In this document: in pieces, positions 9,012-58,650 of the stretch
Position numbering within the stretch: the stretch's first letter is position 1
How the letters are laid out: each line of letters opens with the position of its first letter
Assembly: GCA_947085635.1 (NCBI GenBank)
Contig: CAMTXC010000002.1
Span: forward strand, 140,724 to 204,723
DNA length: 64,000 bases
Source: an uncultured Actinomycetes bacterium
GTDB taxonomy: Bacteria; Actinomycetota; Thermoleophilia; RBG-16-64-13
Reading direction: 5' to 3'
Notes under the pieces: generated by a model
What the model was told of the DNA's origin: nothing
Seen by the model: the letters and a program-made list of their open reading frames with translations, nothing else
Databases searched by the model: none
Translations under genes and position numbers: made by a program

Positions 9012-9977
9012 ATGAGCCGTCGGATCCTCGTAGTCGAAGACGACGCCGACCTGCGCGGGATGCTGCAGAGTCTTCTCGAAGAAGACGGTTACGAGGTGAC
9101 GGTGGCCGAGGATGGGCTCGAAGGACTGCGCCAAGTGGTCGACGCCCCTCCCGAACTCATCATCTCCGATGTCCTGATGCCTCGCATGAGCGGACTCGAG
9201 TTTTGCGCCTTGCTGAAGGACAGCCCACAGACCCACCACATCCCGCTCCTCTTCCTCACCTGCGTCGACGATCCGGTGAACGGCTTCGAAGTGGGCGCCG
9301 ACGACTACCTGGTGAAGCCGTTCCGGCAGCGTGAGCTGCTCGCTCGGCTGAGGGCCATCCTCCGTCGCACCGAGTCGCTGCCCCCGCAGATGGCCACCCA
9401 GGGGCTGAGGGGCAATCTGAGCGAACTGAGCATCGCGGAAGTCCTGCAGACCCTTCACGTCGGGGGGGCTTCGGGGTGCCTCTCCGTGGTCACCGCCGAT
9501 GCCTCCGGCCGGGCCCGTCTATGGTTGGAGCAAGGGGAGCTCGTGGCCGCCAAGGTCGAAGGTGCGGAACTCTTCGACGGCGAAGAGGCCTTCTTCTTCG
9601 CTGCGCGCTGGGAGGAGGGGGCGTTTGCGTTCGACTCGGCCAACCGGGCAGAGCATTGGACCGTCCAGAACACCATTGAGAGCCTGCTGCTAGAGGCCGC
9701 CCGCCGGCTGGATGAGGATGACCCAGAGGAGGGTGGACTGTCGCGTGCCACCTCGCGCTCGTGCCGCATCCGAGCCGAGATGCCCGGGCGCGCAGAGCTC
9801 GAGGCGCGGGTGGTCGAGGTGCGGAACCGCCTGAAACTCAAGGCGTTCGAGGCACTCATGGCCGGGCGGCCCCTGCACCACGGCGAGGCTGTTTCCTTCG
9901 TGCAATTCGTAGACCCCGGCGTCGACCTACCGGAGGAGCTCGACGAGTTGATAGAACGCATGCTGAGCCAGGAGTGA
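9012..9977 (+). CDS. Response regulator: N-terminal receiver domain fused to a PATAN/DUF4388 domain
   Basis: REC motifs ILVVEDDADL, IISDVLMP, DDYLVKPF. These are followed by LRGNLSELSIAEVLQTLHVGGASGCLSV...WEEGAFAFD, typical of DUF4388. Confidence 0.75.
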   Translation: MSRRILVVEDDADLRGMLQSLLEEDGYEVTVAEDGLEGLRQVVDAPPELIISDVLMPRMSGLEFCALLKDSPQTHHIPLLFLTCVDDPVNGFEVGADDYLVKPFRQRELLARLRAILRRTESLPPQMATQGLRGNLSELSIAEVLQTLHVGGASGCLSVVTADASGRARLWLEQGELVAAKVEGAELFDGEEAFFFAARWEEGAFAFDSANRAEHWTVQNTIESLLLEAARRLDEDDPEEGGLSRATSRSCRIRAEMPGRAELEARVVEVRNRLKLKAFEALMAGRPLHHGEAVSFVQFVDPGVDLPEELDELIERMLSQE

Positions 9978-14518: not shown

Positions 14519-15988
14519 ATGACGCACGCACAAGACCACGACTCCTTCCCGCGAACGTACGGTCCGCGCGTCCTCGAGCACCTTCGCGCGCCCAGAGGCG
14601 TGGGAACGCTCGAGAGCCCTGACGCGACCGGCTCCGCGGGAAGTCGAACGTGCGGTGACTTGGTCGCGATGCACGCCTGCCTGCGCGAGGGGCGTATCGT
14701 GGAGGCCCGGTTCCAGGCCTTCGGCTGTCCGGCCACCATCGCCTCGGCGGCCGAGATCGTCCGACGGCTCCCCAGCATGACGATAGTCGAGGCGGCCGCC
14801 CTCGGACACGAGTCGATCGCCGATCATCTCGGACTTCCGCCTCACAAGAGGGGCTGTTCGGAGGTGGCCGCCGACGCCCTCCACAACCTTCTCGAGGACT
14901 GGGTGGGCTCGGGGCTCCCCCTGCTGCCCGATGATCACGAGGGCACCGACGGAATCCTGGTGGCCATGAGTGGTGGAGTCGACAGTTCCGTGGCCGCGCT
15001 GCGACTGAAGGAGACCGGACGACCGGTGACTGGTGTCACGTTCCGCCTCTGGGCCGACCCCACGTGCAGTGTCGCAAGCGGGTGCTGTAGCCCCGAGACG
15101 GTTCGGTCGGCTCGACGCACGGCGCACCACCTGGGGCTGCCTCATCTCACCGTCGACATCACAGACCGATTCTTCGACGAAGTCGTCGAGCACTTCGTGG
15201 CCGAATACGCGGGCGGCCGGACGCCGAATCCGTGCGTCAACTGCAACTCCGTGCTCCGTTTCGACGCGTTGATCGAACTGGCCGACCGCCTTGGGGCGAC
15301 CCAAGTCGCCACGGGGCACTACGCCCGCATGATGGGGCGGCCGCCGCGCCTGCACCGCGGGGTCGATATCAGCAAGGACCAATCCTACGTTCTTTCGCGG
15401 GTCGACCCCGACCTACTGGAGCGGGTGGTCTTCCCTCTCGGCGACTTGGCCAAGTCCGAGGTTCGCGCTCTCGCGCGTGAGGCGGGTCTGGAAGCCCACG
15501 GCGCCGAAGAGAGCCAAGAGATCTGCTTCATCCCCGACGACGACTACCGGCGCTTCCTGGCCGAACGCCTGGGCCGCCGGCCGGGCGCGATCGTCGACGG
15601 CCGGGGTCGCGTCCTCGGCTCGCACGACGGCACGTTCCGCTTCACGGTCGGGCAGCGCAAGGGCCTCGGCATCTCTTCTCCGGAGCCCCTGTACGTGACC
15701 GCGATCGCCGCCGCCGACGGCACCGTCGTCGTCGGGACCCGCGACGACCTCAAGGTGACGGAAGTACGTCTCGGGCACGTCGTCGAGCACCGGGAGCGGG
15801 GGAGAGGCCCGTTGACCGCACAATTGCGTTCCAGTGGGGGGGGCGTCGCGGTCGAGATCGAATCCGGAAGCCATGACCCAGTCCTGAAGCTCGCGACTCA
15901 TGGGCTGGGCGTGGCCATGGGGCAGACCGGGGTCGTATACGAAGCCGACGCTGTGTTGCTCGCTGGGTCGATCGAGGAGACGCGCTAG
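14519..15988 (+). CDS. mnmA: Fusion protein: IscU/NifU-N-like Fe-S scaffold domain + tRNA 2-thiouridine synthase MnmA
   Basis: N-terminal ~120 aa carry three scaffold cysteines (SRTCGD, AFGCPA, KRGCSE). The rest is MnmA: PP-loop LVAMSGGVDSSVAA, NPCVNCN, SQEICFI. Confidence 0.8.
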   Translation: MTHAQDHDSFPRTYGPRVLEHLRAPRGVGTLESPDATGSAGSRTCGDLVAMHACLREGRIVEARFQAFGCPATIASAAEIVRRLPSMTIVEAAALGHESIADHLGLPPHKRGCSEVAADALHNLLEDWVGSGLPLLPDDHEGTDGILVAMSGGVDSSVAALRLKETGRPVTGVTFRLWADPTCSVASGCCSPETVRSARRTAHHLGLPHLTVDITDRFFDEVVEHFVAEYAGGRTPNPCVNCNSVLRFDALIELADRLGATQVATGHYARMMGRPPRLHRGVDISKDQSYVLSRVDPDLLERVVFPLGDLAKSEVRALAREAGLEAHGAEESQEICFIPDDDYRRFLAERLGRRPGAIVDGRGRVLGSHDGTFRFTVGQRKGLGISSPEPLYVTAIAAADGTVVVGTRDDLKVTEVRLGHVVEHRERGRGPLTAQLRSSGGGVAVEIESGSHDPVLKLATHGLGVAMGQTGVVYEADAVLLAGSIEETR

Positions 15989-16788: not shown

Positions 16789-17193
16789 ATGTCCGCCCGC
16801 ACAGACACCGTTTCCCTCACCATCCCGCGTGCTCAGGAGTTCTTCCCCCTGTTCAACATGCTTCTTGGAGGCATCGCGACTCGGCGGGATCTTTCGCTGG
16901 AGGCGCTCGACGATCTGCAGCTGGCCGTCGACAACGTGATCCTGGAGGACCGCGGCTCCACGGACGATCTTTTTCTCGCGGTGACCCTCGAGGAAGACGC
17001 GCTGGAGATAGTCATCTCCCCGCTCTCCGATCCCGACCTTCACAGCACGTTGGTTCATGGCGCTGTTTCGGTCGATGCGGCCGATCGATGCATAGACGTA
17101 TGCCTCCTACTGAGCCCACTCGTCGATCGATACGTGGTGCGCGACCTCGACTCGGGCACCTTCGCTCTCGAGTTGCGGAAACTGCTCCGGTAG
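16789..17193 (+). CDS. Hypothetical protein, possible degenerate RsbW/SpoIIAB-like anti-sigma factor
   Basis: 134 aa, ending 9 nt upstream of a SigB/F-type sigma gene. LQLAVDNVILED resembles the HATPase N-box region, but no DxGxG or G2 ATP-binding boxes are visible. Confidence 0.35.
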   Translation: MSARTDTVSLTIPRAQEFFPLFNMLLGGIATRRDLSLEALDDLQLAVDNVILEDRGSTDDLFLAVTLEEDALEIVISPLSDPDLHSTLVHGAVSVDAADRCIDVCLLLSPLVDRYVVRDLDSGTFALELRKLLR

Positions 17194-17202
17194 GGGGCAT
17201 CC

Positions 17203-18024
17203 GTGGACATCGGCTCCGCTGACGTGAACACCGAACAGATGCCACTGCAGGCACGCATGGGGAACGCCCCCGAGAAGGAACTGCTTCGACGCATCCATCG
17301 CGAAGCGGATACGGCGGCGCGGGAGGAGTTGATCACGCGCTACCTGCCGCTCGTGCGCAGTCTCGCCCGTCGCTTCTCTTCGCGAGGCCAGCCTGTGGAA
17401 GACCTCATCCAGGTGGGGTCCATAGGCTTGATCAAGGCAATCGATCGCTTCGACATAGAGCGAGGCGTGGAGCTCTCCACCTACGCGACTCCCACCATCC
17501 TCGGTGAAATCAAGCGCTACTTCCGCGACAAGGGTTGGGCCGTCAAAGTGCCGCGCGCCCTGCAGGATCTGAACATCCGCCTCAATCGGATCATCGAGCA
17601 GCTCACGGTGGAGTTCAACCGTTCTCCTACCATCGCCGAACTCGCTGAGGCGTGCGATGTGTCGGAGGAAGAGGTACTCGAAGCCCTCGAAAGCGGCAGG
17701 GCCTACAACTCGCTGTCCCTGTTCTCGAGTGGATCACCCGACGATGAGGATTCACTCGAGCTACTCGACTACCTCGGTCGGGAGGACGACGAGTACAAGC
17801 TGGTCGAGCAGCGCAGGTACCTGGCGCCCGCAATGGGACGGCTGGATGAACGAGAGCGCCTCATCCTGCACTTGCGGTTCTTCGAAGGGATGACCCAGAC
17901 CCAGATCGCAGCCCGTGTGGGTATTTCGCAGATGCACGTGTCCAGACTGATCCGCAAGTCGATCGAAGTCCTGCGACACCACATGGTCGATCAGGACGGC
18001 ATCCCGCCCGACACATCCGGCTGA
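17203..18024 (+). CDS. Group-3 RNA polymerase sigma factor, SigB/SigF type
   Basis: Region 2 DLIQVGSIGLIKAIDRFD, STYATPTILGEIKRYFRDKGWAVKVPR; region 4 LDERERLILHLRFFEGMTQTQIAARVGISQMHVSRL. Start is GTG 17203, with ATG 17239 as an alternative. Confidence 0.85.
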   Translation: MDIGSADVNTEQMPLQARMGNAPEKELLRRIHREADTAAREELITRYLPLVRSLARRFSSRGQPVEDLIQVGSIGLIKAIDRFDIERGVELSTYATPTILGEIKRYFRDKGWAVKVPRALQDLNIRLNRIIEQLTVEFNRSPTIAELAEACDVSEEEVLEALESGRAYNSLSLFSSGSPDDEDSLELLDYLGREDDEYKLVEQRRYLAPAMGRLDERERLILHLRFFEGMTQTQIAARVGISQMHVSRLIRKSIEVLRHHMVDQDGIPPDTSG

Positions 18025-22246: not shown

Positions 22247-23131
22247 ATGGCGACGGCAAGAACACGAGCCGCGGGGTGTGATCGGTTGGAAGTAAGGGCG
22301 AGCACAGGGGTAGTCTGCATTCTTGGTCATCCGGTACGCCATTCACGATCGCCGGCGATGCACAACGCCGCCTTCGCCGAAGAGGGCCTCGACCTGGTCT
22401 ACGTGGCCTTCGATGTACCCGAAGCAGGCCTGCCTTCCGCCATCGACGGCCTCCGCAGCCTGGGGTTCGTGGGCGCCAATATCACGGTGCCGCACAAGGA
22501 GAGTGTGGTCCCACTGCTCGACGAGACCGACGAACTCGCCACCAAGATCGGCGCCGTGAACACGATAGTGGCTGATCGCGGGCGGCTGCGCGGCTACAAC
22601 ACAGACGCGGAGGGCTTCCTTCGCGCGCTGGAGCGAGGGTGGGGGAGAGGGCCGGAAGGCGCGCGCTGCCTCGTGCTGGGGGCCGGCGGCGCGGCGCGCG
22701 CGATCGTCGCGGCGCTCGTGCACGCACGGGCGGCCGAGGTCGTGGTGCATAATCGCACCGCGGCGCGCGCCCGTAGACTCTGCTCTGACGCGGTCCTCTG
22801 GTCCAGTGTCCCGGTGCGCGCGATCGAGACCGAGGGGCTCGGGCAGGTCGTCTCGGAGACCGACTTGATCGTGAACGCCACCTCCGTAGGCCTCGACGGT
22901 ACGTTCAAGGCAGTACCGCTTCCTGTCGATATGGTGAAGGAGGGCCACGTTGTGATGGACGTCGTGTATTCTGATTCGATGACACCGCTGTTGGAAGCAG
23001 CCCACGGGAGGGGTGCGACAGTGATCGAAGGCACAGAGATGCTGGTGCAACAAGCCTGCCTCGCCTACAAATTGTGGACAGGGAGGATCGCTCCCGTGCA
23101 TCTGTTCCGAAACAGGGCTTCCAGCGACTGA
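22247..23131 (+). CDS. aroE: Shikimate dehydrogenase
   Basis: ILGHPVRHSRSPAMHNAAF, NITVPHK, GAVNT, GYNTD, LGAGGAARA. The start is uncertain (ATG 22247 or TTG 22286). Confidence 0.85.
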   Translation: MATARTRAAGCDRLEVRASTGVVCILGHPVRHSRSPAMHNAAFAEEGLDLVYVAFDVPEAGLPSAIDGLRSLGFVGANITVPHKESVVPLLDETDELATKIGAVNTIVADRGRLRGYNTDAEGFLRALERGWGRGPEGARCLVLGAGGAARAIVAALVHARAAEVVVHNRTAARARRLCSDAVLWSSVPVRAIETEGLGQVVSETDLIVNATSVGLDGTFKAVPLPVDMVKEGHVVMDVVYSDSMTPLLEAAHGRGATVIEGTEMLVQQACLAYKLWTGRIAPVHLFRNRASSD

Positions 23132-24852
23132 TGCAGCTGCCGAGCGAAGAGATACCCCTGCGCAAGCCGGGGAAGAAGCGCACCGGCGAGATCCTCGTGG
23201 AGATGGGGCTGCTCACACCCCAGCAGCTCGAAGAGGCACTCGAGGAACAGAAGACCTCGCATCTGCGCATCGGCGAAGTGCTCGTAGCGAAGGGGTGGAT
23301 CACGCACACCGAGCTGACCGAGGCCCTTGCCCGTCGTCTGGGTGTGCGGTATCTCGATCTCTCGACCACCAAGGTCGAGCATGCCGCGGCGAACCTGATC
23401 ACCGAGAAGGACGCCAGGCGCTACGCGGCGATCCCCGTGTCGTACCTCAACGACCACACCTTGCTGGTGGCCATGGTCGATCCGGCCAACATCTTCGCGA
23501 TCGACGACCTGCGCATCCTCACCGGGTGCGACGTCGAGCCGGCGATCGCCACCGAAGAAGACATCTTCGGGCAGATCAGCAAGATGCGGCGACTCGAGGA
23601 CAAGGTCGGTCAGAACCTCGAGGACCAGCCCGAATCGATGGAACTCAGCCCCGACGAAGTACGGGACATCAGGGAGCAACTTGATGAGGCTCCCATCGTC
23701 AAGTTGGTCAACAGCATCATGGCTCAAGCGGCCGAGGACGGCGCGTCCGACATCCACTTCGAGCCGCAGGCCAAGGAGATGGTCATCCGCTTCCGCAACG
23801 ACGGGGTGCTGCACGAAGTCATGTCAGTGCCGCGGCGCATGCAATCCGGAGTGCTCTCGCGCATCAAGATCATGGCCGACCTCGACATCGCCGAGCGCCG
23901 CGTGCCTCAGGATGGTCGTATCAGCCTCATGGTCGGAGGAAAGCCCATCGACATGCGGGTGGCCTCGCTGCCGACCGTGTACGGTGAGAAGATAGTGATG
24001 CGACTTCTGGATAGGTCCAACGTCATGCTCCGCCTGCAGGACCTCGGCTTCTCGGAGAAGAGCCTCGCCCGATTCCGCAAGTCGTTCACGAAGCCGTACG
24101 GAGCGATGCTGGTAACGGGTCCGACGGGCTCGGGCAAATCCACAACGCTGTATGCTACGTTGAACATACTGAACACGCCGGAAAAGAACATCATCACAGT
24201 CGAGGATCCTGTGGAGTACCGATTGACCGGCATCAACCAGGTACAGACGAATCTGCGGGCGGGGCTGACCTTCCCTGTCGCCCTCAAGTCGATCCTGCGC
24301 TGCGACCCGGACATCGTCATGATCGGCGAGATCCGGGACAAGGAGACCGCTCAGATAGCCGTGGAGTCCGCTCTCACCGGTCACCTGGTCCTTTCGACTC
24401 TGCACACCAATGACGCTCCCGGCGCCTTGTCACGTCTCACCGAGATGGGCATCGAGCCGTTCCTCACAGCTTCCGCCGTCGATTGCGTTCTCGCTCAGCG
24501 CCTCGCACGCAAGCTGTGTGAAGGGTGCAAGGAACCCTACAAGCCCACGCAGGAAATGCTCCGTCGGAACGACTTCCCCATGGAGGCGTGTGAAGACTGG
24601 GAGAACGTCACCCTCTACAAGCCGGTAGGATGTCCGCGCTGCAACGGAACCGGCTACAAGGGGCGCCTCGGCATCTACGAGGTCATGCTGGTCACCGAGG
24701 CCATCGAGAGACTCACTGTCGAAAGGAAGAGCGCTGACGAGATCAGTCGTGTCGCGCAGGCAGAGGGGATGAAGAGCCTCCGGGAGGACGGTATCGAAAA
24801 AGTGCTGCAGGGCCGTACAGCGATCGAGGAGATCGCCCGTGTCATTGTGTGA
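23131..24852 (+). CDS. pilB: Type IV pilus assembly ATPase PilB (GspE family) with an MshEN-like N-terminus
   Basis: ATG 23131 overlaps the aroE stop (TGATG). N-terminal T2SSE_N repeats, Walker A GPTGSGKSTT, Asp/His boxes, and the tetracysteine CEGC...CPRCNGTG. Confidence 0.9.
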   Translation: MQLPSEEIPLRKPGKKRTGEILVEMGLLTPQQLEEALEEQKTSHLRIGEVLVAKGWITHTELTEALARRLGVRYLDLSTTKVEHAAANLITEKDARRYAAIPVSYLNDHTLLVAMVDPANIFAIDDLRILTGCDVEPAIATEEDIFGQISKMRRLEDKVGQNLEDQPESMELSPDEVRDIREQLDEAPIVKLVNSIMAQAAEDGASDIHFEPQAKEMVIRFRNDGVLHEVMSVPRRMQSGVLSRIKIMADLDIAERRVPQDGRISLMVGGKPIDMRVASLPTVYGEKIVMRLLDRSNVMLRLQDLGFSEKSLARFRKSFTKPYGAMLVTGPTGSGKSTTLYATLNILNTPEKNIITVEDPVEYRLTGINQVQTNLRAGLTFPVALKSILRCDPDIVMIGEIRDKETAQIAVESALTGHLVLSTLHTNDAPGALSRLTEMGIEPFLTASAVDCVLAQRLARKLCEGCKEPYKPTQEMLRRNDFPMEACEDWENVTLYKPVGCPRCNGTGYKGRLGIYEVMLVTEAIERLTVERKSADEISRVAQAEGMKSLREDGIEKVLQGRTAIEEIARVIV

Positions 24853-24911
24853 GCAGACGAGCCTCGGGGCACCAGGACAAGGCCTGCTATTGATCTACCT
24901 GTCCCAGCGTC

Positions 24912-25988
24912 ATGGAGGTGACCGTGGAACTCGTTGAGGTCTTGAAGGAGGTGCTCGAGAGGGGAGCCTCCGACCTCCACATCTCAGTGGGGGTGCCGCC
25001 GACTCTTAGGGTCAGTGGCAGGCTTATACATCTTGATGCCCCGAGGGTCACCACGAACGACGCGCGTTCCCTCATCTACAGCATCCTTACGCAAGATCAG
25101 CGGCAACAACTCGAGAACGACTGGGAGCTTGACTTCTCGTACTCGGTGCCCGGCCGAGCGCGCTTCCGGGTCAACGCGTATTTCCAGCGCAACAGCCTCG
25201 GAGCCGCTTTTCGTCTCATCCCGGTGGACATCAAGTCCATCGACGAGCTGGGGTTGCCGCCGGTTCTGCACGAACTAGCGGCCAAGCCGCGCGGTTTCGT
25301 ACTCGTCACTGGGCCCACGGGCTCGGGCAAGTCCACGACCCTGGCGGCCATGATCGACGCTATCAACAAAGACCGCCACGATCACATCATGACCATCGAG
25401 GATCCGATCGAGTTCCTTCACCGCCACCAGAACTGCATCGTAAACCAACGCGAGGTGGGAACCGACACGAAGTCCTTCGCCAAGGCCCTGAAGTCTGTGC
25501 TGCGGCAAGATCCCGACATCATCCTCGTGGGGGAGCTCCGCGATCTCGAGACGATCACGACCGCTCTGACCGCCGCGGAGACGGGGCACCTGGTCTTCGC
25601 GACGCTTCACACGCAAGACGCACCTCAGACCATCGATCGCCTCATAGACGTGTTCCCGCCGCATCAGCAAGAGCAGATACGTGTGCAGATCGCCGCGACC
25701 ATCCAGGGCATCGTCACGCAGCAATTGCTTGAGCGGCGCGACGGCAAGGGCCGGATCGCCGCCTGCGAGGTCTTGATCCCGACGCCTGCAGTTCGGAACC
25801 TCATCAGGGAAGGGAAGACGCATCAGATCTACACCACCATGCAGACGGGCACCAAGCACGGCATGATGACCATGGACTCCACCTTGGCCGATCTTGTGAG
25901 GCGAGGCTTGATCACAAAGGAACTGGCTGATCGTCGATCGTCGAATCCGGAAGACCTCAAGCGACTTCTAGTATCTGGGGCGGCGTGA
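24912..25988 (+). CDS. pilT: Type IV pilus retraction ATPase PilT
   Basis: GASDLHISVG, Walker A GPTGSGKSTT, HIMTIEDPIEF, ILVGELRD, TGHLVFATLHT, AIRNLIREGK-type motif (AVRNLIREGKTHQI). Confidence 0.9.
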   Translation: MEVTVELVEVLKEVLERGASDLHISVGVPPTLRVSGRLIHLDAPRVTTNDARSLIYSILTQDQRQQLENDWELDFSYSVPGRARFRVNAYFQRNSLGAAFRLIPVDIKSIDELGLPPVLHELAAKPRGFVLVTGPTGSGKSTTLAAMIDAINKDRHDHIMTIEDPIEFLHRHQNCIVNQREVGTDTKSFAKALKSVLRQDPDIILVGELRDLETITTALTAAETGHLVFATLHTQDAPQTIDRLIDVFPPHQQEQIRVQIAATIQGIVTQQLLERRDGKGRIAACEVLIPTPAVRNLIREGKTHQIYTTMQTGTKHGMMTMDSTLADLVRRGLITKELADRRSSNPEDLKRLLVSGAA

Positions 25989-26041
25989 CGCTCGGTTCGA
26001 AGAGCGTTCGCGGGTAGCGCTGTGGGAAAGGAAGGACCACC

Positions 26042-27256
26042 ATGACCACCTTCACATACACGGCCAAGCCGTCAGGCGGCAGCCAGATGGGCGGCGAGAT
26101 ACAGGGGGATTCGAAGGCCGCGGTGGCCGCCGAACTCCGGCGGCGTGGCCTCACCGTGATGTCCCTTGAGGAGAAAAGGGGCCTCCCCAACATCAACGAG
26201 CTGCTCGAGGGAATGAGCAGTGTCAAACTCCGCGACAAGGTCATCTTCTCTCGACAGTTCGCCACCATGATCAACGCGGGTCTTGCGCTGCTCCGGGCGC
26301 TCTTCATCCTGGAAGAGCAGACGGAGAACCCGCGCTTGCGGAAGATCATCCAGGCCGTCCGCCAAGATGTCGAGGCGGGTATGCCCCTCTCGGATTCCTT
26401 CGAGAAGCACCCGATCGCGTTCGACAGACTCTACGTCAGTATGGTCCGGGCGGGCGAGGTCGGCGGGGTGCTCGACCTGACCCTCGAACGCCTGGCGACC
26501 CAGCTCGAGAAAGACGACAGCCTCCGAAGATCGGTCAAGTCGGCCATGACGTACCCGATTCTCATCTTCGTATTCGCGATCGTCGTGCTGTTCGCGCTCA
26601 TTATCTTCGTGATACCTGTGTTCGCCGGCATGTACGACGGATTGGGCGGGCAATTGCCGCTTCTCACCCGGATCATGGTGGGAGCCAGCGACTTCATGCG
26701 CTCGTTCTGGTTCATCGTGTTCCCAGCCGCCTTCCTCCTCTTCTACGGGCTCAAGCGGCTCAAGAACACCAAGACGGGCACCGAGACCTGGGACAAGATC
26801 AAGCTGCGCCTACCCATGAAATTGGGCCCGATCGTGCAGAAAATCGCCGTTTCCCGCTTCAGCCGGACGCTGGCGACGCTGGTGAGTTCCGGTGTGCCGA
26901 TCTTGCAGGCCATCGATATCACTGGAAAGACCTCGGGCAACACGGTCATCGAGTACGCGATGGACGCAGTCAGGGAGAACATCAAGAGCGGAGATTCGAT
27001 CTCACGTCCCCTTGAGAAGATAAAGGTGTTTCCACCGATGGTCACTCAAATGATCGCCATCGGGGAGGAGACAGGTGCTCTCGACACCATGCTCCACAAG
27101 ATCGCCGACTTCTACGAGGACGAGGTCGATTCCGCGGTCAAGTCACTGACGTCGATCATCGAGCCGATCATGATGATCTTCATCGGTGGCATCGTGGGTC
27201 TCGTCGTCGTCTCTATGTACCTGCCGATCTTCAACCTGTTCCAGCTGGTGGAGTAG
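26042..27256 (+). CDS. pilC: Type IV pilus platform protein PilC (GspF family)
   Basis: Two T2SSF repeats (FSRQFATMINAGLALLRAL; FSRTLATLVSSGVPILQAI), three TM segments, 404 aa. GGAAGGA lies upstream of the ATG. Confidence 0.9.
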   Translation: MTTFTYTAKPSGGSQMGGEIQGDSKAAVAAELRRRGLTVMSLEEKRGLPNINELLEGMSSVKLRDKVIFSRQFATMINAGLALLRALFILEEQTENPRLRKIIQAVRQDVEAGMPLSDSFEKHPIAFDRLYVSMVRAGEVGGVLDLTLERLATQLEKDDSLRRSVKSAMTYPILIFVFAIVVLFALIIFVIPVFAGMYDGLGGQLPLLTRIMVGASDFMRSFWFIVFPAAFLLFYGLKRLKNTKTGTETWDKIKLRLPMKLGPIVQKIAVSRFSRTLATLVSSGVPILQAIDITGKTSGNTVIEYAMDAVRENIKSGDSISRPLEKIKVFPPMVTQMIAIGEETGALDTMLHKIADFYEDEVDSAVKSLTSIIEPIMMIFIGGIVGLVVVSMYLPIFNLFQLVE

Positions 27257-27296: not shown

Positions 27297-28148
27297 ATGT
27301 ACATGTCTAGATCTTCTAGCTTGGAAGACGATATACAGGCAGCCGCTTCTCTCCGCACGCCGGTTAGGCTGGGAGGCAAAGAACAGCCCGCCGGCGCCCA
27401 ACCGCCACCGTTCGCGGCCAACGAAACCCTTCTGGCGGCGTACCGCCGCGGAGATTTGAGCGCGCTCGATCGACTTCTCGAGAAGAACGAGCCGTTGCTG
27501 CATCATGCTCTGAAGCGGTTCTCGTACTCGTCGGAGCCTTACGAAGATCTGTTCCAGGTCGCACGCCTCGGCTTCATGAAGGCGGTCCACAGGTACGACG
27601 AGACCCGCGGCATCGCCTTCTCCACGTACGCCATCGCAATCGCCGACGGCGAGATCCGTCATCATCTTCGAGACGCCCTGCTGGTACGTCAGCCGCGCTG
27701 GGCGCGAGGCCTCTACACGCAGATCGTCCAAGCGCAGACGGAGTTCTTCCGGGAGCACGGCCGCTCACCGACGATCGCGGAGGTGGCAGACCTCGTCAAC
27801 ATCCAACAGAAGGGTATCCTGGAGATCATCAGGGCACAAGCGAGCCTTAACGTGCATTCCCTAGACGAGCCCTTTGACGGACCCGATGCCCGAGCACCCG
27901 ACAGGACCCTGGTGCGATCCATCCGCGCAGAGTCGTTCTCGCTGCCCATCGAGGATCGTATCCTGTTGTACGAAGCGCTGGGCGCACTCTCCGAACTTCA
28001 GAAGAAGATTATCTACCTGCTGTTCTTCGGCGATCTGACGCAGCAGGAGGTCGCAGACGAGATCGGCCTTACGCAACGCACCGTGTCGCGCGAGCACGTG
28101 AAGGCCTTGGACCGGCTCAAGGCGATCCTGAGCAAGCGCATAATCTGA
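27297..28148 (+). CDS. Group-3 sigma-70 family sigma factor immediately downstream of pilC
   Basis: Region 2 YEDLFQVARLGFMKAVHRYD, FSTYAIAIADGEIRHHLRD; region 3; region 4 LSELQKKIIYLLFFGDLTQQEVADEIGLTQRTVSRE. I chose ATG 27297; the track ORF start at 27186 overlaps pilC. Confidence 0.8.
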   Translation: MYMSRSSSLEDDIQAAASLRTPVRLGGKEQPAGAQPPPFAANETLLAAYRRGDLSALDRLLEKNEPLLHHALKRFSYSSEPYEDLFQVARLGFMKAVHRYDETRGIAFSTYAIAIADGEIRHHLRDALLVRQPRWARGLYTQIVQAQTEFFREHGRSPTIAEVADLVNIQQKGILEIIRAQASLNVHSLDEPFDGPDARAPDRTLVRSIRAESFSLPIEDRILLYEALGALSELQKKIIYLLFFGDLTQQEVADEIGLTQRTVSREHVKALDRLKAILSKRII

Positions 28149-28840: not shown

Positions 28841-29593
28841 TCAGTCGGCGAGCCGCGAGAGCTCTCGGTAGAGAAGCAGGTCGAGCAGACGAGCCATGAG
28901 CGAGCCGAGATCGGCCAACGCCCGCACCCCCTCCTCTCTCCTGTCTTTGTTCGCCGATCTCATCGACGGCGCCACCACCTGTGCCAGCAGGGCGGCCTCA
29001 CGCTCCGCCGACGAACTGAGAACGCGCAGATTGCGGGGTTCGACCCCATGGCGACTCAGGAGGCTGCAGATGCGCACCACCTCCAGGTCCGGTTCCGAGA
29101 GGCGGGTCTCGACCACCGGTGTGGCAGCATCGAAGAGATGGAACTCAGCGAGAGCGCGCAGAAAGGACTCCGAAACGCCGGTTATGCTCAACGCTTGGTC
29201 CCAAGTGTACACGGGCTCGTCTCGCTTGAGGCCGCGAGGAGTGTCGAAAGGTCCGGAGGGTGCCAGCGGCCGACCTACCGCTGAAGCGGTGCCACGCTCG
29301 AGACGTTCCTTGATCACATCGAGGGGCAGGAACTCGTCCCGCTGTAGGGTCAGGATAGTGCGCAGCGTTCGCACGGCCGCCTGGCCGTACTTACGGTAGC
29401 CCCCCGGGGTGCGCTCCGGCGACACGAGCCCTCGATCCTCCAGGTAACGGATCTTGCTAATGGTCAGGTCGGGGAACTCATCGCGGAGCCATGCCACCAC
29501 TCCGCCTATCGCCAAGAGGGTTTCGCCCTGCCCCTCAAGACCTCCCGCAACCTCTCCGCCGGACGTATCATGACGATGGGAGGGATCCGCCAT
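28841..29593 (-). CDS. MerR-family transcriptional regulator with a C-terminal extension
   Basis: HTH region ISKIRYLEDRGLVSPERTPGGYRKYGQAAVRTLRTILTLQRD. Its start overlaps the FHA gene stop (TGATG). The gcvH-FHA-MerR order resembles the mycobacterial gcvH-garA-MerR neighbourhood. Confidence 0.75.
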   Translation of the reverse strand: MADPSHRHDTSGGEVAGGLEGQGETLLAIGGVVAWLRDEFPDLTISKIRYLEDRGLVSPERTPGGYRKYGQAAVRTLRTILTLQRDEFLPLDVIKERLERGTASAVGRPLAPSGPFDTPRGLKRDEPVYTWDQALSITGVSESFLRALAEFHLFDAATPVVETRLSEPDLEVVRICSLLSRHGVEPRNLRVLSSSAEREAALLAQVVAPSMRSANKDRREEGVRALADLGSLMARLLDLLLYRELSRLAD

Positions 29594-30060
29594 CAGTCGA
29601 TCGGTTCCAGGAACGCCAGTTTGAACTTCCCGATCTGCAGTTCGTCACCGTCGGCGAGGTGCTGGCGCTCGACTCTGCCCCGGTTGACGTAGGTGCCGTT
29701 CAGACTGTTCAGATCCTCTACCGCGTACCCGGTGGCATCCCGCACCACGCGGGCGTGATGGCGAGAGACAGTGACATCGTCGAGGAACAGGTGGCTCTCC
29801 GGGTTGCGGCCGATGGTCAGGAGATCGCTGTCGAGGGGGATCTGCTCTCCCTCGCTGCCCCCGCCGGCTCTGATCAGAAGAACGGGGTAGCGACTCGCCT
29901 GTCCGGGGACGTCTGGGCCGGTTCCGACCTCATCCCCGTCGAGGGGCGCATACGTGACCGTGGTCTCGGCGAGGTCGGCGACGACCAGGCGGCTTCCGCA
30001 ACGACTGCAGAAGTTGGCGTCTCCGCTGTTTTCAAAGGAGCACTTGGCGCACGAGGTCAT
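29593..30060 (-). CDS. FHA-domain protein with an N-terminal zinc ribbon
   Basis: CAKCSFENSGDANFCSRCG zinc ribbon; FHA core LTIGRNPESHLFLDDVTVSRHHARV...SLNGTYVN...L..GDELQIGKF. Confidence 0.85.
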   Translation of the reverse strand: MTSCAKCSFENSGDANFCSRCGSRLVVADLAETTVTYAPLDGDEVGTGPDVPGQASRYPVLLIRAGGGSEGEQIPLDSDLLTIGRNPESHLFLDDVTVSRHHARVVRDATGYAVEDLNSLNGTYVNRGRVERQHLADGDELQIGKFKLAFLEPID

Positions 30061-30347
30061 GCCTCGCCCTCTTCTGCGTGGGCGAGTTGCCTCCGGTAGT
30101 CGGTGAACTCGGCTGCCATCTGATCTTCGATGCCCCGCAGTGCTTCCGGGCTCTCCAGTATGCGCGCGCGGTCCTCAGCATCGGTGTTGTTGATGATGTA
30201 TGGGTCGGCCATCACCTCGTCGAACCTCCGACCCTTGCTCAGTTCCGTCACGATGTACCGGAGGATCCTCTCCTCGCGCACACCGACGGCGAGTTCGCGG
30301 AAGAGCCGCTCCATGCCCCTTACGACTCGGTCGATCCTATCCCCCAT
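30057..30347 (-). CDS. Hypothetical 96-aa protein with no recognised family
   Basis: The ORF has an ATGA overlap onto the FHA gene and starts 15 nt after the RsiG-like gene. It is acidic and helical, and I recognise no motif. Confidence 0.5.
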   Translation of the reverse strand: MGDRIDRVVRGMERLFRELAVGVREERILRYIVTELSKGRRFDEVMADPYIINNTDAEDRARILESPEALRGIEDQMAAEFTDYRRQLAHAEEGEA

Positions 30348-30362: not shown

Positions 30363-30641
30363 TCAGAGTTCGTCTTCGGCCAACCCGCGGGAACTGAGGA
30401 TGCCGCTGAGCTTCTCGACGTCGCCTTCGACGAAGAGGCTCTTGCCGCTCGAATGCTTGTCTCTCAGCCGGCGAACCATCTCTGCGCGAAGGATGTCGAG
30501 TTTCGCGTGGATGATCCGGCGGGCCTTTGAGACCTCTCGCTCCTCCTCCGCCAGTTGCTCGGCGAGGAGCTTGATCTCGTCATCGCCCTTCGACTGTATG
30601 TCGATGAGCAAATCGAACGATGAGGTGTCGTAGTCGTTCAT
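30363..30641 (-). CDS. Small coiled-coil protein with a single RsiG-type c-di-GMP-binding motif (candidate anti-sigma factor)
   Basis: 92 aa from ATG 30641. EEEREVSKARRIIHAKLD matches E-x3-S-x2-R-x3-Q-x3-D with Q replaced by H. The sequence is predicted helical throughout. I rejected the track start at 30677. Confidence 0.55.
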   Translation of the reverse strand: MNDYDTSSFDLLIDIQSKGDDEIKLLAEQLAEEEREVSKARRIIHAKLDILRAEMVRRLRDKHSSGKSLFVEGDVEKLSGILSSRGLAEDEL

Positions 30642-31252: not shown

Positions 31253-31588
31253 TCAACTCGCCTGCTGCACGTCGCTCAGACCCTCCAGAAGCAGGCTGTC
31301 GAGGGTCCGATCTATCGTCACTGGGGAGGTGATGGCAGTGAGCTCGGCACTCTCGAAGGCGAAGTGGCCCTCCTCGAGCGCGAGGAGACCCCAGAAGGCC
31401 TCAAGGGCCGAATCGACTCCCACCTGCTCCGCGTGGATGACTCGTCCCCGGGCTATGACGATCATGCCCTCGACCTCGGTCGCATTGGCCGAGCGGCGGA
31501 GTGCCACCTCTCCCGTCCTCTTCCCATGCACGAGTACCTGCAGGATCTCAGGAAGAGCGAAGTCCCTCAGGTCGCCGACAAAGGCCAT
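31253..31588 (-). CDS. Stand-alone PATAN/DUF4388 domain protein
   Basis: GDLRDFALPEILQVLVHGKRTGEVAL...IVIARGRVIHAE...ALEAFWGLLALEEGHFAFE. ATG 31588 is preceded by AGGAGGG. It is transcribed divergently from mglBA. Confidence 0.7.
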   Translation of the reverse strand: MAFVGDLRDFALPEILQVLVHGKRTGEVALRRSANATEVEGMIVIARGRVIHAEQVGVDSALEAFWGLLALEEGHFAFESAELTAITSPVTIDRTLDSLLLEGLSDVQQAS

Positions 31589-31628
31589 CGCCCTCCTATG
31601 CCTCGTCATCCAACGATGATCGCGGAGG

Positions 31629-31656
31629 ATTCTACCAACGCGGACCCGCGTAGCAA
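31629..31656 (-). promoter_or_regulatory. Candidate promoter for the PATAN gene
   Basis: The minus strand reads TTGCTA, 16 nt, TGgTAGAAT (extended -10). Confidence 0.4.
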
Positions 31657-31679
31657 AGGCCACGGGGCCTTGTTATACT
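31651..31679 (+). promoter_or_regulatory. Candidate promoter for mglB-mglA
   Basis: TAGCAA, 17 nt, TGtTATACT (extended -10). Its -35 hexamer is the reverse complement of the PATAN promoter -35. Confidence 0.35.
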
Positions 31680-31735
31680 TCTGCCCGTGCTTCCGGCCGT
31701 ATCGTAGCGGCCCAGCTGCGCACAAGGAGGTGCTC

Positions 31736-32230
31736 TTGGCTCGCCGCAAGGGGCTGGTAATCAACGATCGGCAGATGCAGCTCGTGGATGACATCCTCGA
31801 TAAGCTGCGCCAGGTTTCGGGGTCACGATTCATCGCCCTTGTGTCCACGAGTGGCCAACCGATCACCACATCGTCGGTGGAAGCTCACCCCGACACCCTG
31901 TCCCTCGCCTCCTTGGCCGCCGGCTCGTTCGCCGCGACGCAGCAACTTGCCGAGGTGCTGCACGAGCGCGAGTTCACCCTGTTGTTCCACGAGGGCCGCG
32001 AGAGCAATCTGCACGTGGCGCAGGTCACGGATCAAGTCCTGCTGGTGATCACGTTCGGACGGGAGACTCAGGTGGGCAAGGTGCGGCTCTACACGAACCG
32101 GGCGGTGGAGGTGCTCCGGCCTGTGTTCGATTCGAACGATGAGGACGACCAGACCAACCTCATGATCGACGACGACTACTCGCTGCTCGCGGACGAAGCC
32201 ATAGACGACCTGTTCGCGGACATGGAGTGA
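31736..32230 (+). CDS. mglB: Roadblock/LC7-family protein MglB (GTPase-activating partner of MglA)
   Basis: Similar by eye to Myxococcus MglB (SLASLAAGSFAA..., LFHEGRESNLHV, LLVITF, VRLY), including the acidic C-terminal tail ending DDLFADME. TTG 31736 lies 5 nt after AAGGAGG; an alternative ATG is at 31775. Confidence 0.8.
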   Translation: MARRKGLVINDRQMQLVDDILDKLRQVSGSRFIALVSTSGQPITTSSVEAHPDTLSLASLAAGSFAATQQLAEVLHEREFTLLFHEGRESNLHVAQVTDQVLLVITFGRETQVGKVRLYTNRAVEVLRPVFDSNDEDDQTNLMIDDDYSLLADEAIDDLFADME

Positions 32231-32234
32231 CTTC

Positions 32235-32819
32235 GTGCCCCTGATCAACTTCGCCGCACGTGAGATCAACTACAAGATCGTCTACTACGGATGCGGTCTG
32301 TGCGGCAAGACCACGAACATCCAGTACATCCACAAGAAGGTGAACCCGAACGCCCGCGGCAAGCTTGTCAGTATCGCCACCGAAGAGGAGCGCACCCTCT
32401 ACTTCGACTTCCTTCCGCTTTCCCTCGGAACGGTCAAGGGCATGAAGACGCGTTTCCACCTCTACACCGTGCCGGGCCAGTCCTACTACAACGCTTCGCG
32501 CCGACTCGTGTTGCAGGGAGTCGACGGCATCGTGATGGTTGCCGACAGTCAGATCACTCGGCTGGACGAGAATGTCGAGAGCTATCTGAATCTCTGGGAC
32601 AACCTCCTCGACCAAGGCGACGACTTGTCCCGCCTGGGTTTCGTGATCCAGCTCAACAAGCGGGATCTCACGGACATCTTCTCGGCCGAGGATCTCAAGG
32701 AGCTCCTCAACCACACGAACTCGCCCGTGACGGAAGCGTGCGCACTCACCGGCCAAGGAGTCTTCGAGACCCTCAAGACTGTGTGCAAGCAGGTCATCGC
32801 CAAGACCGGTCAGACCTAG
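32235..32819 (+). CDS. mglA: Ras-like small GTPase MglA
   Basis: Collinear by eye with Myxococcus MglA: REINYKIVYYGCGLCGKTTN, ERTLYFDFLPLSLG, RFHLYTVPGQ (Thr in place of the Ras Asp), NKRDL. GTG start 4 nt after mglB, with GGAG upstream. Confidence 0.88.
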   Translation: MPLINFAAREINYKIVYYGCGLCGKTTNIQYIHKKVNPNARGKLVSIATEEERTLYFDFLPLSLGTVKGMKTRFHLYTVPGQSYYNASRRLVLQGVDGIVMVADSQITRLDENVESYLNLWDNLLDQGDDLSRLGFVIQLNKRDLTDIFSAEDLKELLNHTNSPVTEACALTGQGVFETLKTVCKQVIAKTGQT

Positions 32820-34644: not shown

Positions 34645-37164
34645 CTAGCCTTCCTCGTCGCTTCGAAGCTCCTCTATGATCCGTCGGATGGTGTCAGCGT
34701 GCGTGCTCAGCAGCGCTTCCGCCGCTTCCTCCGTATCGGCTTCCGCGTAGATGTGGAACACCGGGTCTCCGGCGTCGGGCAGGTATTGCACCCAATCATC
34801 GCGCCCTGCGGCCACCTTTATGCCGTCGAGCAGGGACACCCGTTCGTGCTTGAACTCCTCCACCAACTGGCGCATGACCGCGCCCTTCACCCCCCACGGG
34901 CACGGCACGACCGCGTGAGCCATGACTACCTTCGGCAGATCGGCCACCAGCACCGACACAGGCTCATCGCCCATGGCGATGGTCTCCAGTATCAGAACAA
35001 GGGTCAGCAGGGAATCCGGGGCGGGAAGGAAGGACGGCAGGATGAATCTGCCCTCTGTCGTCGCCGCGAAGATGGTGTGAGCGCGGGTCGCCTCCGCAAA
35101 CAGCGCAGAGTCGGCCGCGCGGGTGCGAATCACGTTGGCGCCGCACTCGGCGGCCACCTCGTCGGCGTGGCGCGTCATGTGCACGGGTAGAGCCAGGTTG
35201 CCCGGACCGTGTCGTTCGCACACGTGTCGCATGAGCAGGAGCAGCAGAGCTTCGTCGCTCACGCGGTTGCCGTTCTCATCCAAGACGTAGACACCTTCGG
35301 CCGCCGGGTCCACGCACACGCCCAGGTCGGCTCCCATGGCGGCCACCAACTTTCGCAACCGCTCACCTTCTGGATCTGCCACTCCCCGCGCCCGCTGGCT
35401 CTGATCGGGGCCGGCGGCCGCATTGATGCTCACCACTTCCAGATCCAGCGAGTGCAGTATGTTGGGCAGGACGATCGACGAGGCGGAGAACCCATGGTCC
35501 AGCACCAGTCGGAACTCGCGGGCACGGATGCGATCGACGTCGCATGACGCAAGCAGAGCGCCGAGGTAGCCTTCGAGCAATCTTGCGGGAAAGGTGATCG
35601 TGCCCATCTCTTCGGGGGACGCCCTGCGGTAGTCCTCCCGGTAGAAGATATTCTCGATGGAGCGCTCCGCCGACGGACCGATGGGGATACCCGGAGGGGT
35701 GGAAAAGAGGATCTCGACCTCTTCCGGACTGTCCCGACACACCCGAAGATGTACTCCGCCCGCGGAGTTGCCGCTGCGCAGGTCGAAGCGGTTGAGCGAA
35801 CCCGGAGCCACGCGCAGGTCGCGCACCGAGACGCCCGTGGCGTTGAGCCCCGCCACAAGAGCCCGGTTGAACACGCGAGTGGCCGGATGCCAGTCACGGC
35901 TCGCCGTGATGACGTCCCCCGGGTTCAGCACGGTGCCGTACGACATGGCCAGGCGCATCACGAGCTCGGGAGTCACGTCGACATTGATGAGGCCGCGCAC
36001 GCCGTTTTTCCCGAACAGGGCGCTGAGGCCACGCGACTCCCAGATCACACTGGCCCGCACCGAAGCGCCCGCTTCGATCACCTTGTCGGGATAGATCTTG
36101 ATGTCGCTGCCGATCACCGCACTCTCGCCCACCGAACAGCCGTCGCCAACCACGGCCCCGGCGGAGACATCGGCGTTGGCGCGAAGATCCACGTTGGAGC
36201 CGACCACCGCTCCCGTGAGGCGCACCCCCGGACCCACGTATACCCGGTCGCCCACGACCGAACCGGAGATGGACGCCCCATCGCGAACCACCACGTTGTT
36301 GCCCAGAACGGTGTGTGCTCCGATGGTAGCGTTCGCGGATACGCGCGCGAAGTCACCGATGAGAGCCGGGCCCTCGACCCGGTCGATACTCTCGAGGTCG
36401 ACCCCGTGACCCAGCCAGACGTTCCCGCGAAGCCTCACGCCGGGCATCTGGACGCGCACCTTGCCGTCGAGGGCGTCCCTGTTCGCCTGGAGGAACTGGG
36501 CGAGGGTCCCAATGTCTTGCCAGTAACCGTCGCACAGCAGCCCATACAGGGGCTTCCTCAGTTCGTGCAGCCGCGGGAAGAGCTCGTGGCTGAAGTCGAA
36601 CGGCTGTCCTGGAGGGATATGGTCGAAGACCTCCGGCTCGAGCACGTAGACGCCCGTGTTGATCGTGTCGGAGAACACCTGACCCCACCCCGGTTTCTCC
36701 AGGAACCTCTCGATCCTCCCCTCTTCGTCCACTATGACCACACCGAACTCCAGCGGGTTGTCCACGCTCTTGAGGGCGATGGTCACAAGGGCCTCTCGTT
36801 CGTGGTGGAAGGCCACGATCTCACTCAAGTCGAAATCGGTAAGCGCATCTCCACTGATCACGAGGAAGGTGTCGTCGAGCGACGATTCGGCGTTCTTCAC
36901 CGAGCCCGCGGTGCCGAGAGGGCTCTCCTCGACGCTGTACTCGATGCGCATGTCGAAGGCCGAGCCGTCGCGGAAGTAGTTCTGGATCAACTGCGGCATG
37001 AAGGCCACCGTCATCACGACGTCGCGAATACCGTGTCTCGCGAGAAGCTCGAGGATGTGCAGAGCCGTGGGCTTGTTCACCACCGACACCATCGGCTTCG
37101 GCTGGTTGGACGTGAGTGGTCGAAGTCGCGTGCCTTGCCCGCCGGCCATGACGACCGCTTTCAC
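34645..37164 (-). CDS. Sugar-1-phosphate nucleotidyltransferase (ManC/GlmU-like, with a left-handed beta-helix) fused to a phosphohexomutase-like domain with degenerate catalytic motifs
   Basis: N-terminus [21 protein letters not shown]; hexapeptide repeats at aa ~250-370. The C-terminal PGM/PMM fold is recognisable ([22 protein letters not shown]), but TASHNP aligns to RVCRDS and DGDGDR to DPAAEG. Confidence 0.75.
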
Positions 37165-57730: not shown

Positions 57731-58650
57731 CAGCATTCTTCCCGGTGGCGGGCGCGTGGGTGCGCCTCGTCGTAGACGCGCCGAAGGTGTGCGGCGCTGA
57801 CGTGCGTGTACACCTGGGTCGTAGAAAGGTCCGCGTGGCCCAGCATCTCCTGCACGGCGCGGAGGTCCGCACCTCCCTCGACGAGGTGGGTGGCGAAGGA
57901 GTGGCGCAGGGTGTGAGCCGACACCTCGTCGCTGAGGCCCGCCAGCCGCGCGTACTTCTTCACTATCAGGTGAAGTCCCTGCCGAGATAAGCCGCCTCCG
58001 CGAACGTTGAGGAACACCTCCGGCGGCTTGAGCGCCCCCGCGCGGCCGAGCCGCGGGCGCCCGCGCGCGAGATACGCGGTAACCGCCTCCACGGCCTTCC
58101 GGCCCAGCGGGACGACCCGCTCCTTCGACCCCTTACCCATGGTCCGCACGAACCCCACTTCAAGGTCAATGTCCTGGAGGCGCAGGGAGACCGCCTCAGA
58201 TGCCCTCAGACCGGCCCCATACAACACTTCGAGCAGTGCTCTGTCGCGGTGGCCCGGGGGCGTCGCCGGAGGCCGGGAGAGTAGTCGATCGACTTGAGAC
58301 ACCGTAAGCGGTTTCGGGAGCCCCGCAGGCGACCTCGGCGCCAAGAGCGCCTCGCTCGGGTCTCTCTCGATGCGGGAGATCGACGCGAGATAGCCGTAGA
58401 AGGAACGGATCGCAGCTGTCTTCCTCGCCCGCGTGGAAGGCTTCCACGTACCCTCGGCGAGGAACGAGCGCAGTTCCTCGGTGGAGGCTCCCTCGAGAGA
58501 AAAGGCCCGCTGCTCGAGGTACGCGCTCAATTGGAGCAGGTCTCGGCGATACGAGGCCACGGTGAGTTCAGCGAGGCCACGTTCCGACCTCAGCGAGGCG
58601 AGGTACTCCGCCACCGCTTCCGGCGATCTCTTCGGATGCGCGACATGCAC
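57730..58650 (-). CDS. xerD: Tyrosine recombinase XerD (chromosome dimer resolution)
   Basis: Phage-integrase N- and C-terminal domains, catalytic R...HTLRHSFATHL...GHADLSTTQVYTH. The xerD call follows its position in the actinobacterial pyrG-nudix-xerD synteny. Confidence 0.8.
   Translation of the reverse strand: MHVAHPKRSPEAVAEYLASLRSERGLAELTVASYRRDLLQLSAYLEQRAFSLEGASTEELRSFLAEGTWKPSTRARKTAAIRSFYGYLASISRIERDPSEALLAPRSPAGLPKPLTVSQVDRLLSRPPATPPGHRDRALLEVLYGAGLRASEAVSLRLQDIDLEVGFVRTMGKGSKERVVPLGRKAVEAVTAYLARGRPRLGRAGALKPPEVFLNVRGGGLSRQGLHLIVKKYARLAGLSDEVSAHTLRHSFATHLVEGGADLRAVQEMLGHADLSTTQVYTHVSAAHLRRVYDEAHPRARHREEC

Follow-up and report, generated by a model that had tools for sequence, protein, structure and literature searches.

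The genes considered here lie in a stretch of 64,000 nucleotides from an uncultured actinobacterium (contig CAMTXC010000002.1), referred to below as the window. Two of them encode a Myxococcus-type MglA/MglB pair, a Ras-like GTPase with its Roadblock partner, and a third, transcribed divergently, encodes a PATAN protein. On the forward strand, mglB (31736..32230) encodes a Roadblock/LC7 GTPase-activating protein (GAP) of 164 amino acids (aa) with a C-terminal acidic helix (…AIDDLFADME). It is followed by mglA (32235..32819, forward strand), which starts 4 nt after mglB and encodes a Group 1 MglA Ras-like GTPase of 194 aa. The PATAN gene (31253..31588, reverse strand) encodes a stand-alone protein of 111 aa assigned to PF14332 (DUF4388/PatA_N). 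The PATAN gene and mglB are separated by a divergent control region of 147 bp (31589..31735).

The GTPase is readily recognised as an MglA protein. In phmmer searches it matches MglA of M. xanthus (6hjh) with E=3e-73 and MglA of Thermus thermophilus (3t12) with 1.5e-65; the next small-GTPase family, Arf, reaches 1e-5. By BLASTP it is 59% identical to the M. xanthus protein over 190 residues without gaps (E=1e-86). The P-loop reads GCGLCGKTT, as compared to GPGLCGKTT in M. xanthus, and the G2 region (EERTLYFDF) aligns with TDRTLFFDF of M. xanthus, placing the intrinsic arginine directly before the conserved threonine (R-T). The G3 motif is LYTVPGQ and the G4 motif is NKRD. Group 1 MglA proteins are defined by an arginine directly before the conserved G2 threonine together with TVPGQ at G3, whereas in Groups 2–5 a threonine replaces the arginine and G3 reads GTPGQ; Ras itself has DxxGQ (Wuichet and Sogaard-Andersen 2015, PMC4316618). 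Because it carries both E-R-T and TVPGQ, the window MglA belongs to Group 1, and neither to the conservon type (Group 2) nor to Group 5. NCBI already applies the name 'gliding-motility protein MglA [Actinomycetota bacterium]' to MBU2602165.1, which falls into the same cluster at 90% identity.

When the window MglA was used to scan one genome per species, 159 relatives were returned, and all comparisons among related loci were made on the best 80 of these. The 80 are metagenome-assembled genomes (MAGs), each from a separate species and all labelled Thermoleophilia, Gaiellales or Actinomycetota. Their MglA proteins are 84–99% identical, and identity falls to 35–50% for neighbouring proteins such as FtsR or VanW. 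All four MglA motifs, including the unusual cysteine of the P-loop, are invariant in 80 of 80 loci. The first-pass annotation of this DNA, a reading of the sequence made before the present searches, had singled out the GCGLCGKTT P-loop, the arginine of ERTLYFDF and LYTVPGQ as MglA-specific features, and all of them are present and align as it described. The similarity to 6hjh and the motif comparison also speak against a placement of the GTPase outside the MglA family, the outcome that annotation had given as counting against its reading.

The mglB gene starts with TTG, 5 nt past the sequence AAGGAGG. The resulting length of 164 aa is the commonest within the 90%-identity cluster of this protein, NCBI records of MAGs included. 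A mechanically called open reading frame (ORF) of 288 aa beginning at 31364 was rejected as an over-extension, as it would overlap the PATAN gene. MglB scores 42.7 bits against Robl_LC7 (PF03259; cutoff 23) and matches M. xanthus MglB (6izw_B/6h5b_B) end to end (E~4e-19; chain residues 5–159). Within this alignment the C-terminal AIDDLFAD corresponds to DIDNLFSE of M. xanthus, so that both the Roadblock core and the acidic DDLF tail proposed in the first-pass annotation are borne out. The match to T. thermophilus MglB (1j3w) is weaker (E=7e-14), and the score against NF052242, the NCBIfam equivalog of the Thermus-type MglB, is 77.9 bits, below its cutoff of 200. As this model is narrow, the low score weakens the case for an equivalog of the Thermus protein but not that for membership in the MglB family. 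Among related loci, the commonest MglB tails keep the (I/M)DDLF sequence, with IEDLF in two of those listed. The two genes are tightly coupled throughout: of 79 related loci in which their spacing was measured, 78 show a gap of at most 11 nt or an overlap and the remaining one a gap of 45 nt. Judged from these alignments, the identification of the pair as MglA/MglB is close to certain, and the degree of conservation indicates that mglB and mglA encode working proteins under strong purifying selection.

The divergent gene is equally clear in its family assignment. Its product matches PF14332 over profile positions 2–120 of 122 (E=3.7e-16; score 59.7 bits, cutoff 25), in agreement with the stand-alone, divergent DUF4388/PATAN gene of the first-pass annotation. 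The reading frame is open up to position 31663, and the ATG at 31588 is preferred as the start on account of a GGAGG located 4 nt upstream and of independent gene calls, which also give 111 aa. The protein corresponds to a minimal core of ~100 aa, with no match to a REC domain and no alpha-helical insertion. A single-sequence word search with the protein gave 5 close relatives, and an AlphaFold2 (AF2) model was built with 51 homologues gathered by protein search. The model is compact and confident (pLDDT 88.8; pTM 0.83), with predicted secondary structure elements in the order b-a-b-b-b-a-b-a (b, strand; a, helix). A Foldseek search of this model against the PDB gave nothing below E=0.1 and a TM of at most 0.45, and neither phmmer nor the family profile found a match among solved chains. 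On the basis of these searches, no solved analogue of the predicted PATAN fold was identified, and the fold is not Roadblock-like; assignments to a Roadblock-like or other known fold were rejected.

The PATAN protein exists in two forms that follow the division of the related loci into a near clade, which includes the window, and a larger, more distant clade. The short form (106–120 aa) is found in the near clade. The long form (~199 aa) is found in L014, L026 and most other loci of the far clade (e.g. at 8683–9399 of L026) and carries a C-terminal extension ending in the strongly conserved sequence PPQPELER. The AF2 model of the long form has a pLDDT of 89.3, and its extra domain bears a weak resemblance to a winged helix (2yu3; E=1.3, a weak match).

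The gene order of the 80 loci was compared by tblastn with the window proteins. The string apt-ftsR-FHA-rsiG-[gcvH]-[PATAN]<>mglB-mglA-vanW-GMPP, where <> marks the divergent junction, is kept in almost all of them. PATAN genes next to mglB were identified with a hidden Markov model derived from ORFs lying upstream of mglB, for which 77 loci have enough upstream sequence. In 64 of these 77 loci the PATAN gene stands head-to-head with mglB. The pairing of mglAB with an adjacent DUF4388 gene noted in the first-pass annotation recurs in most of the best 80 relatives, but the gene is missing in 13 of the 77 assessable loci and a single class is covered. Because it is absent beside mglB in those 13 loci, PATAN is best regarded as an accessory rather than an obligate part of the system. 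In L025, L035 and L065 the PATAN frame upstream of mglB is broken, which reflects either decay or assembly error. On its other side, PATAN is followed by gcvH in the near clade (in the window at a spacing of 45 bp, both genes on the minus strand) and by rsiG in the far clade. As the neighbour on this side differs between the clades, gcvH being absent from the far one, at least one rearrangement has left the PATAN-mglB junction intact.

The assignment of the window to an actinobacterial host of the class Thermoleophilia rests on FtsR, which scores 194.8 bits against the FtsR_Actino equivalog (cutoff 150), on the presence of a single-motif RsiG protein, on the gene order gcvH-FHA-ftsR and on the labels of the 80 relatives, and it agrees with the actinobacterial context recognised earlier. 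Horizontal transfer was considered; the composition of the mgl locus shows no anomaly and the synteny is deep. Identical copies of window proteins are present on short metagenome contigs. Sample names suggest that the relatives come from bog, lake sediment and anaerobic reactors.

The control region between PATAN and mglB contains two back-to-back promoter-like elements of the extended -10 type. The element facing PATAN, found by a promoter scan, is sigma-70-like (TTGCTA-16-TGgTAGAAT; 31656..31629, reverse strand). The element facing mglB reads TGtTATACT on the forward strand, with its -10 at 31674-31679. Seven loci of the near clade retain both -10-like blocks, GATTCTACCAAC and TTGTTATACTT, in slightly altered form, while the remainder of the spacer (114–172 bp) diverges and the PATAN proteins are 35–86% identical. 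L084, the most divergent of the seven, has only partial versions of the blocks. From this conservation the two elements are read as probable back-to-back housekeeping-type promoters. In the closest relatives a small GC-rich hairpin (31656-31671) lies between the -10-like blocks. No promoter of the FliA/WhiG type (TAAA..GCCGATAA) is present in the control region. The sole near match by the locus is GCCGACAA at 31574, which falls within the coding sequence of PATAN and is not preceded by TAAA, and across the window such matches occur at chance level (36 as compared to 33 expected). Control of the mgl locus by WhiG was rejected on these grounds.

Genes for a type IVa pilus motor are located 4.5 kb upstream of the mgl locus. 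The block (23131..27256) comprises pilB (23131-24852), pilT (24912-25988) and pilC (26042-27256), all on the forward strand, with the corresponding Pfam T2SSE and T2SSF assignments. PilB scores 656.9 bits against TIGR02538, below the cutoff of 675.65, and has an MshEN N-terminus with a cyclic di-GMP (c-di-GMP) motif, recognised by the motif model NF053729 at 68 bits (cutoff 38). PilT scores 504 bits against its family model (cutoff 319), and the PilC models give ~435 bits. Among the 80 related loci, pilBTC is found next to the mgl region in 11, all of them in the near clade. In a far-clade locus the corresponding position is occupied by miaA, dapF, an aminotransferase gene, hflX, dut and a Nudix gene, and the far-clade neighbours are of the housekeeping kind. 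The interpretation of the locus as a pilus-polarity switch, as proposed in the first-pass annotation, thus gains from the nearby motor genes, and from the PATAN binding described below, but loses from the rarity of this adjacency.

The observations above can be combined with what is known of the MglA family in a tentative scheme. By family knowledge, MglA would cycle between GDP- and GTP-bound forms, and the MglB dimer would act as its GAP, binding MglA-GTP and positioning MglA's own arginine (ERT) and glutamine (TVPGQ) for hydrolysis. This mechanism was established on the T. thermophilus pair (PMC4316618). The C-terminal DDLF helix of MglB may tune the interaction between the two proteins, and, if Myxococcus and Thermus are a guide, one pole would be marked by MglA-GTP and MglB being kept apart within the cell. 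Most likely, the switch would act by placing or activating the type IVa pilus motor PilB/PilT/PilC, an output that we infer with a degree of confidence a little above an even balance. PATAN would be expressed from the shared divergent control region and might serve as an accessory adaptor that joins the switch to the base of the pilus, acting through the N-terminal region of PilB or through PilC and standing outside the core of the GTPase cycle. This last role is a tentative suggestion and is itself rather doubtful. Taken as a whole, a functional Group 1 MglA/MglB switch with a pilus output and PATAN as an accessory adaptor is the interpretation that we cautiously favour.

The pilus output, and with it an adaptor role for PATAN, is favoured because of the known role of the family, the adjacent pilBTC genes and the binding of a PATAN domain to PilB1 and PilC in Synechocystis. 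There, the PATAN domain of PixE binds the N-terminal domain of PilB1 as well as that of PilC, and this domain alone suffices to reverse phototaxis; in M. xanthus the PATAN protein SgnC is needed for S-motility (bioRxiv 10.1101/2021.06.11.447907). The link between PATAN and motility, given as computational in the first-pass annotation, accordingly had published experimental backing already. The same annotation placed PATAN 'in place of' partners such as RomR and RomX, which it found absent from the window. No homologues of RomR, RomX, RomY, MglC or Frz were recognised in the window. This absence is uninformative, since the genes of known MglA partners are not adjacent to mglA in Myxococcus or Bdellovibrio either (PMC4316618), and the replacement of RomR/RomX by PATAN is therefore speculation.

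Several observations weigh against a pilus-directed switch with PATAN as its adaptor. The reach of MglA homologues extends beyond pili, to gliding and the invasion of prey by Bdellovibrio among other processes. The larger, more distant clade has no pilBTC within 10 kb of mglBA, and no gene for a pilin, PilM/N/O or a prepilin peptidase was found among the window ORFs scanned. With respect to PATAN, mglBA is kept without it in the 13 loci mentioned above, and 3 of the 64 PATAN genes look frameshifted. All 80 loci come from one class, and the adjacency is thus partly inherited rather than independently selected. PATAN may also head the minus-strand string PATAN-gcvH-rsiG-hyp-FHA-ftsR-apt (hyp, hypothetical protein) and could belong to it functionally.

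These points bear on three other explanations of the locus. That the pair represents a conservon-type (Group 2) or Group 5 system of Actinobacteria, instead of a Myxococcus-type polarity switch, might be expected from the 2015 survey, in which these were the sole MglA groups listed from Actinobacteria (PMC4316618), and the actinobacterial conservon (CvnA-D) likewise contains a small Ras-like GTPase together with a Roadblock protein. The motifs at G2 and G3 nonetheless rule this out for practical purposes, as the window MglA has R-T and TVPGQ in place of the T-T and GTPGQ of conservons. It is furthermore 59% identical to the M. xanthus protein, and no histidine kinase of the CvnA type or gene of the CvnC type is located nearby, the neighbours being PATAN, gcvH and VanW. 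This explanation is considered extremely improbable. A genuine MglA/MglB switch that polarises a target other than pili, such as polar growth, division, envelope remodelling or another surface machine, is a more serious alternative, although one to which we assign a distinctly minor share of belief. The stable neighbours in most loci are of a suitable kind, namely the cell-division regulator FtsR, an OdhI/FhaB-like FHA protein, a VanW/peptidoglycan-binding protein and a GDP-mannose enzyme; the outputs of the MglA family are varied (PMC4316618), and the proximity of pilBTC in the near clade would then be coincidental. Against this, pilBTC lies directly beside the block in the near clade, and the partners for which there is experimental precedent, PATAN on the one hand and PilB/PilC on the other, both point to pili. 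The arrangement gcvH-FHA-ftsR, moreover, resembles the mycobacterial order gcvH-garA-Rv1828, and given this resemblance the adjacency may mean little functionally.

The remaining explanation concerns PATAN itself, which might be a neighbour by descent that works with gcvH, rsiG and other genes of the minus strand, or alone, and is functionally unconnected with MglA/MglB. Its direction of transcription leads away from mglBA, and it lies a short distance from gcvH on the same strand, is absent from 13 of 77 loci that keep mglBA, and is found in loci of one class. This is held to be unlikely, as the head-to-head junction with mglB survives rearrangement on the other side of PATAN (gcvH as opposed to rsiG). 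An association of the two is also reported from other phyla. Surveys place PATAN genes near mglA or mglB: mglA genes of Groups 1 and 5 'occasionally' adjoin PATAN genes (Wuichet and Sogaard-Andersen 2015, PMC4316618), mglB homologues are found close to PATAN genes (Makarova et al. 2006, as cited in PMC4316618), and the association is repeated by Han et al. (bioRxiv 10.1101/2021.06.11.447907). A pilus-directed MglA/MglB switch with PATAN as an accessory adaptor accordingly remains the interpretation that is cautiously preferred.

Two genes from PATAN lies a gene for an RsiG-like protein of 92 aa (30363..30641, reverse strand; PF22802, E=5e-13), which has a single c-di-GMP motif and matches RsiG of R. 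radiotolerans (7lq2/7lq4) with E~3e-5. Its motif reads E-x3-S-x2-R-x3-H-x3-D, so that a histidine replaces the glutamine of the consensus (E-x3-S-x2-R-x3-Q-x3-D). In almost every one of the 80 related loci the gene lies at most two genes away from mglBA. RsiG proteins with a single motif have so far been reported solely from Rubrobacteria and Thermoleophilia. In Rubrobacter, a (RsiG)2-(c-di-GMP)2-WhiG switch governs type IV pili (PMC8325347), and the window resembles this system in having a single-motif RsiG homologue and a pilus motor block. It differs in the histidine of the motif, in having no sigma factor of the WhiG type within the window, although a WhiG gene may be located elsewhere in the genome, and in the absence of a WhiG-type promoter at the mgl locus. 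The gene directly after pilC (27297..28148, forward strand), which holds this position in every near-clade locus, encodes a sigma factor that scores 179.6 bits as SigBFG and 83 bits as FliA_WhiG. Its best match in the PDB is sigma-F (1l0o_C, 5e-29), as compared to 1e-13 for WhiG (6pfv), and this protein was rejected as a WhiG partner of RsiG, being SigF-like by both models and PDB match. Both of the sigma factors found in the window are SigB/F-like, and none is of the WhiG type.

A bolder version of the scheme can be drawn from these genes. PATAN, MglB and MglA in Thermoleophilia may form a compact, self-contained polarity module in which PATAN bridges MglA-GTP (or MglB) to PilB/PilC, with a tie to c-di-GMP through the RsiG-like protein and the MshEN-type PilB. 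This we regard as speculative and improbable as it stands. Should it be true, a Ras-like polarity system would for the first time be described in a monoderm actinobacterium, and the module would provide the first biochemical role for the pairing of PATAN and mgl genes, noted since 2006.

Compared with the M. xanthus polarity module (6hjh, 6izw, 6h5b), the window pair has the same mglB-mglA order and an MglA that is 59% identical, and the intrinsic arginine, TVPGQ, NKRD, the Roadblock core and the C-terminal helix of MglB are common to both. The differences lie in the host, a monoderm uncultured member of the Thermoleophilia, in the P-loop (GCG, invariant in the clade, as opposed to GPG) and in the PATAN gene positioned head-to-head with mglB. 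The T. thermophilus proteins (3t12, 1j3w) belong to the same Group 1 family, but the window MglB is nearer to the Myxococcus protein. PATAN shares PF14332 with the PatA-type regulators of cyanobacteria, in which PATAN is joined to REC (PixG, PixE, PilG/TaxP) and acts as the output that redirects pilus assembly (bioRxiv 10.1101/2021.06.11.447907). Unlike these, the window PATAN has neither a REC domain nor the alpha-clip insertion, and a second PATAN protein in the window has the reverse order (REC-PATAN). The gene association itself is that of the earlier surveys of PATAN and mgl genes (Makarova et al. 2006; Wuichet and Sogaard-Andersen 2015). These list no Group 1 MglA in Actinobacteria, whereas here the junction is present in 64 of 77 loci of a class-level clade.

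What is new at this locus is the occurrence of Group 1 MglAB in Actinomycetota; the PATAN-mgl association and the automated naming of MglA were known already. The 2015 survey lists Group 1 MglA in a dozen phyla, with Actinobacteria not among them and represented by Groups 2 and 5 (PMC4316618). No report of Group 1 MglAB in Actinomycetota was found in the literature searched, where the one recent paper to treat MglA, MglB and type IV pili for an actinobacterial system deals with conservons. Papers on RsiG/WhiG and actinobacterial pili (including PMC8325347) make no mention of MglA, and a literature search pairing MglA with terms related to Thermoleophilia returned no MglA in any of the 15 top-ranked papers. 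The view of the first-pass annotation that this lineage is new for characterised MglAB is in keeping with these results. The find thus adds a host lineage to a known system, and its novelty is one of taxonomy rather than of mechanism. Actinomycetota, previously listed with conservon-type and Group 5 relatives alone, now also include carriers of the Myxococcus-type (Group 1) MglA/MglB, as a widespread and strongly conserved module of a large, uncultured class whose members come from soil, sediment and digesters. With its stable head-to-head PATAN gene, the locus offers a simple three-gene system in which to ask what the PATAN-mgl pairing does, for example as a link between a small GTPase and a pilus motor. 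Its practical use is limited by the hosts of the 80 loci being uncultured MAGs, by the association not being new and by the GTPase having been named automatically already.

The second PATAN protein is a response regulator of the REC-PATAN type (9012..9977, forward strand; Response_reg E=1e-24, DUF4388 E=2e-18). Its gene directly follows relA/spoT, an arrangement that recurs on independent metagenome contigs. Between rsiG and ftsR (29593-30347, reverse strand), two genes overlap, one for an FHA protein that resembles OdhI/FhaB and bears a zinc ribbon at its N-terminus, the other for a conserved protein of 96 aa without a family match. A second sigma module of the partner-switching type is located at 16789-18024 (forward strand), where a gene for an RsbW-like anti-sigma kinase (a weak match) is followed by that of a SigB/F-family sigma factor scoring 298.5 bits, above the subfamily cutoff. 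The rest of the 64-kb window consists of housekeeping genes. Four enzymes in the window are fusions, combining NifU-N with MnmA (14519-15988, forward strand), a GMPP-like nucleotidyltransferase with a phosphomannomutase (34645-37164, reverse strand), DHH-DHHA1-CBS with the head of a poly(A)/CCA polymerase (50857-53565, reverse strand), and a domain of the metalloenzyme superfamily with a nucleoside phosphorylase (55670-57736, reverse strand).

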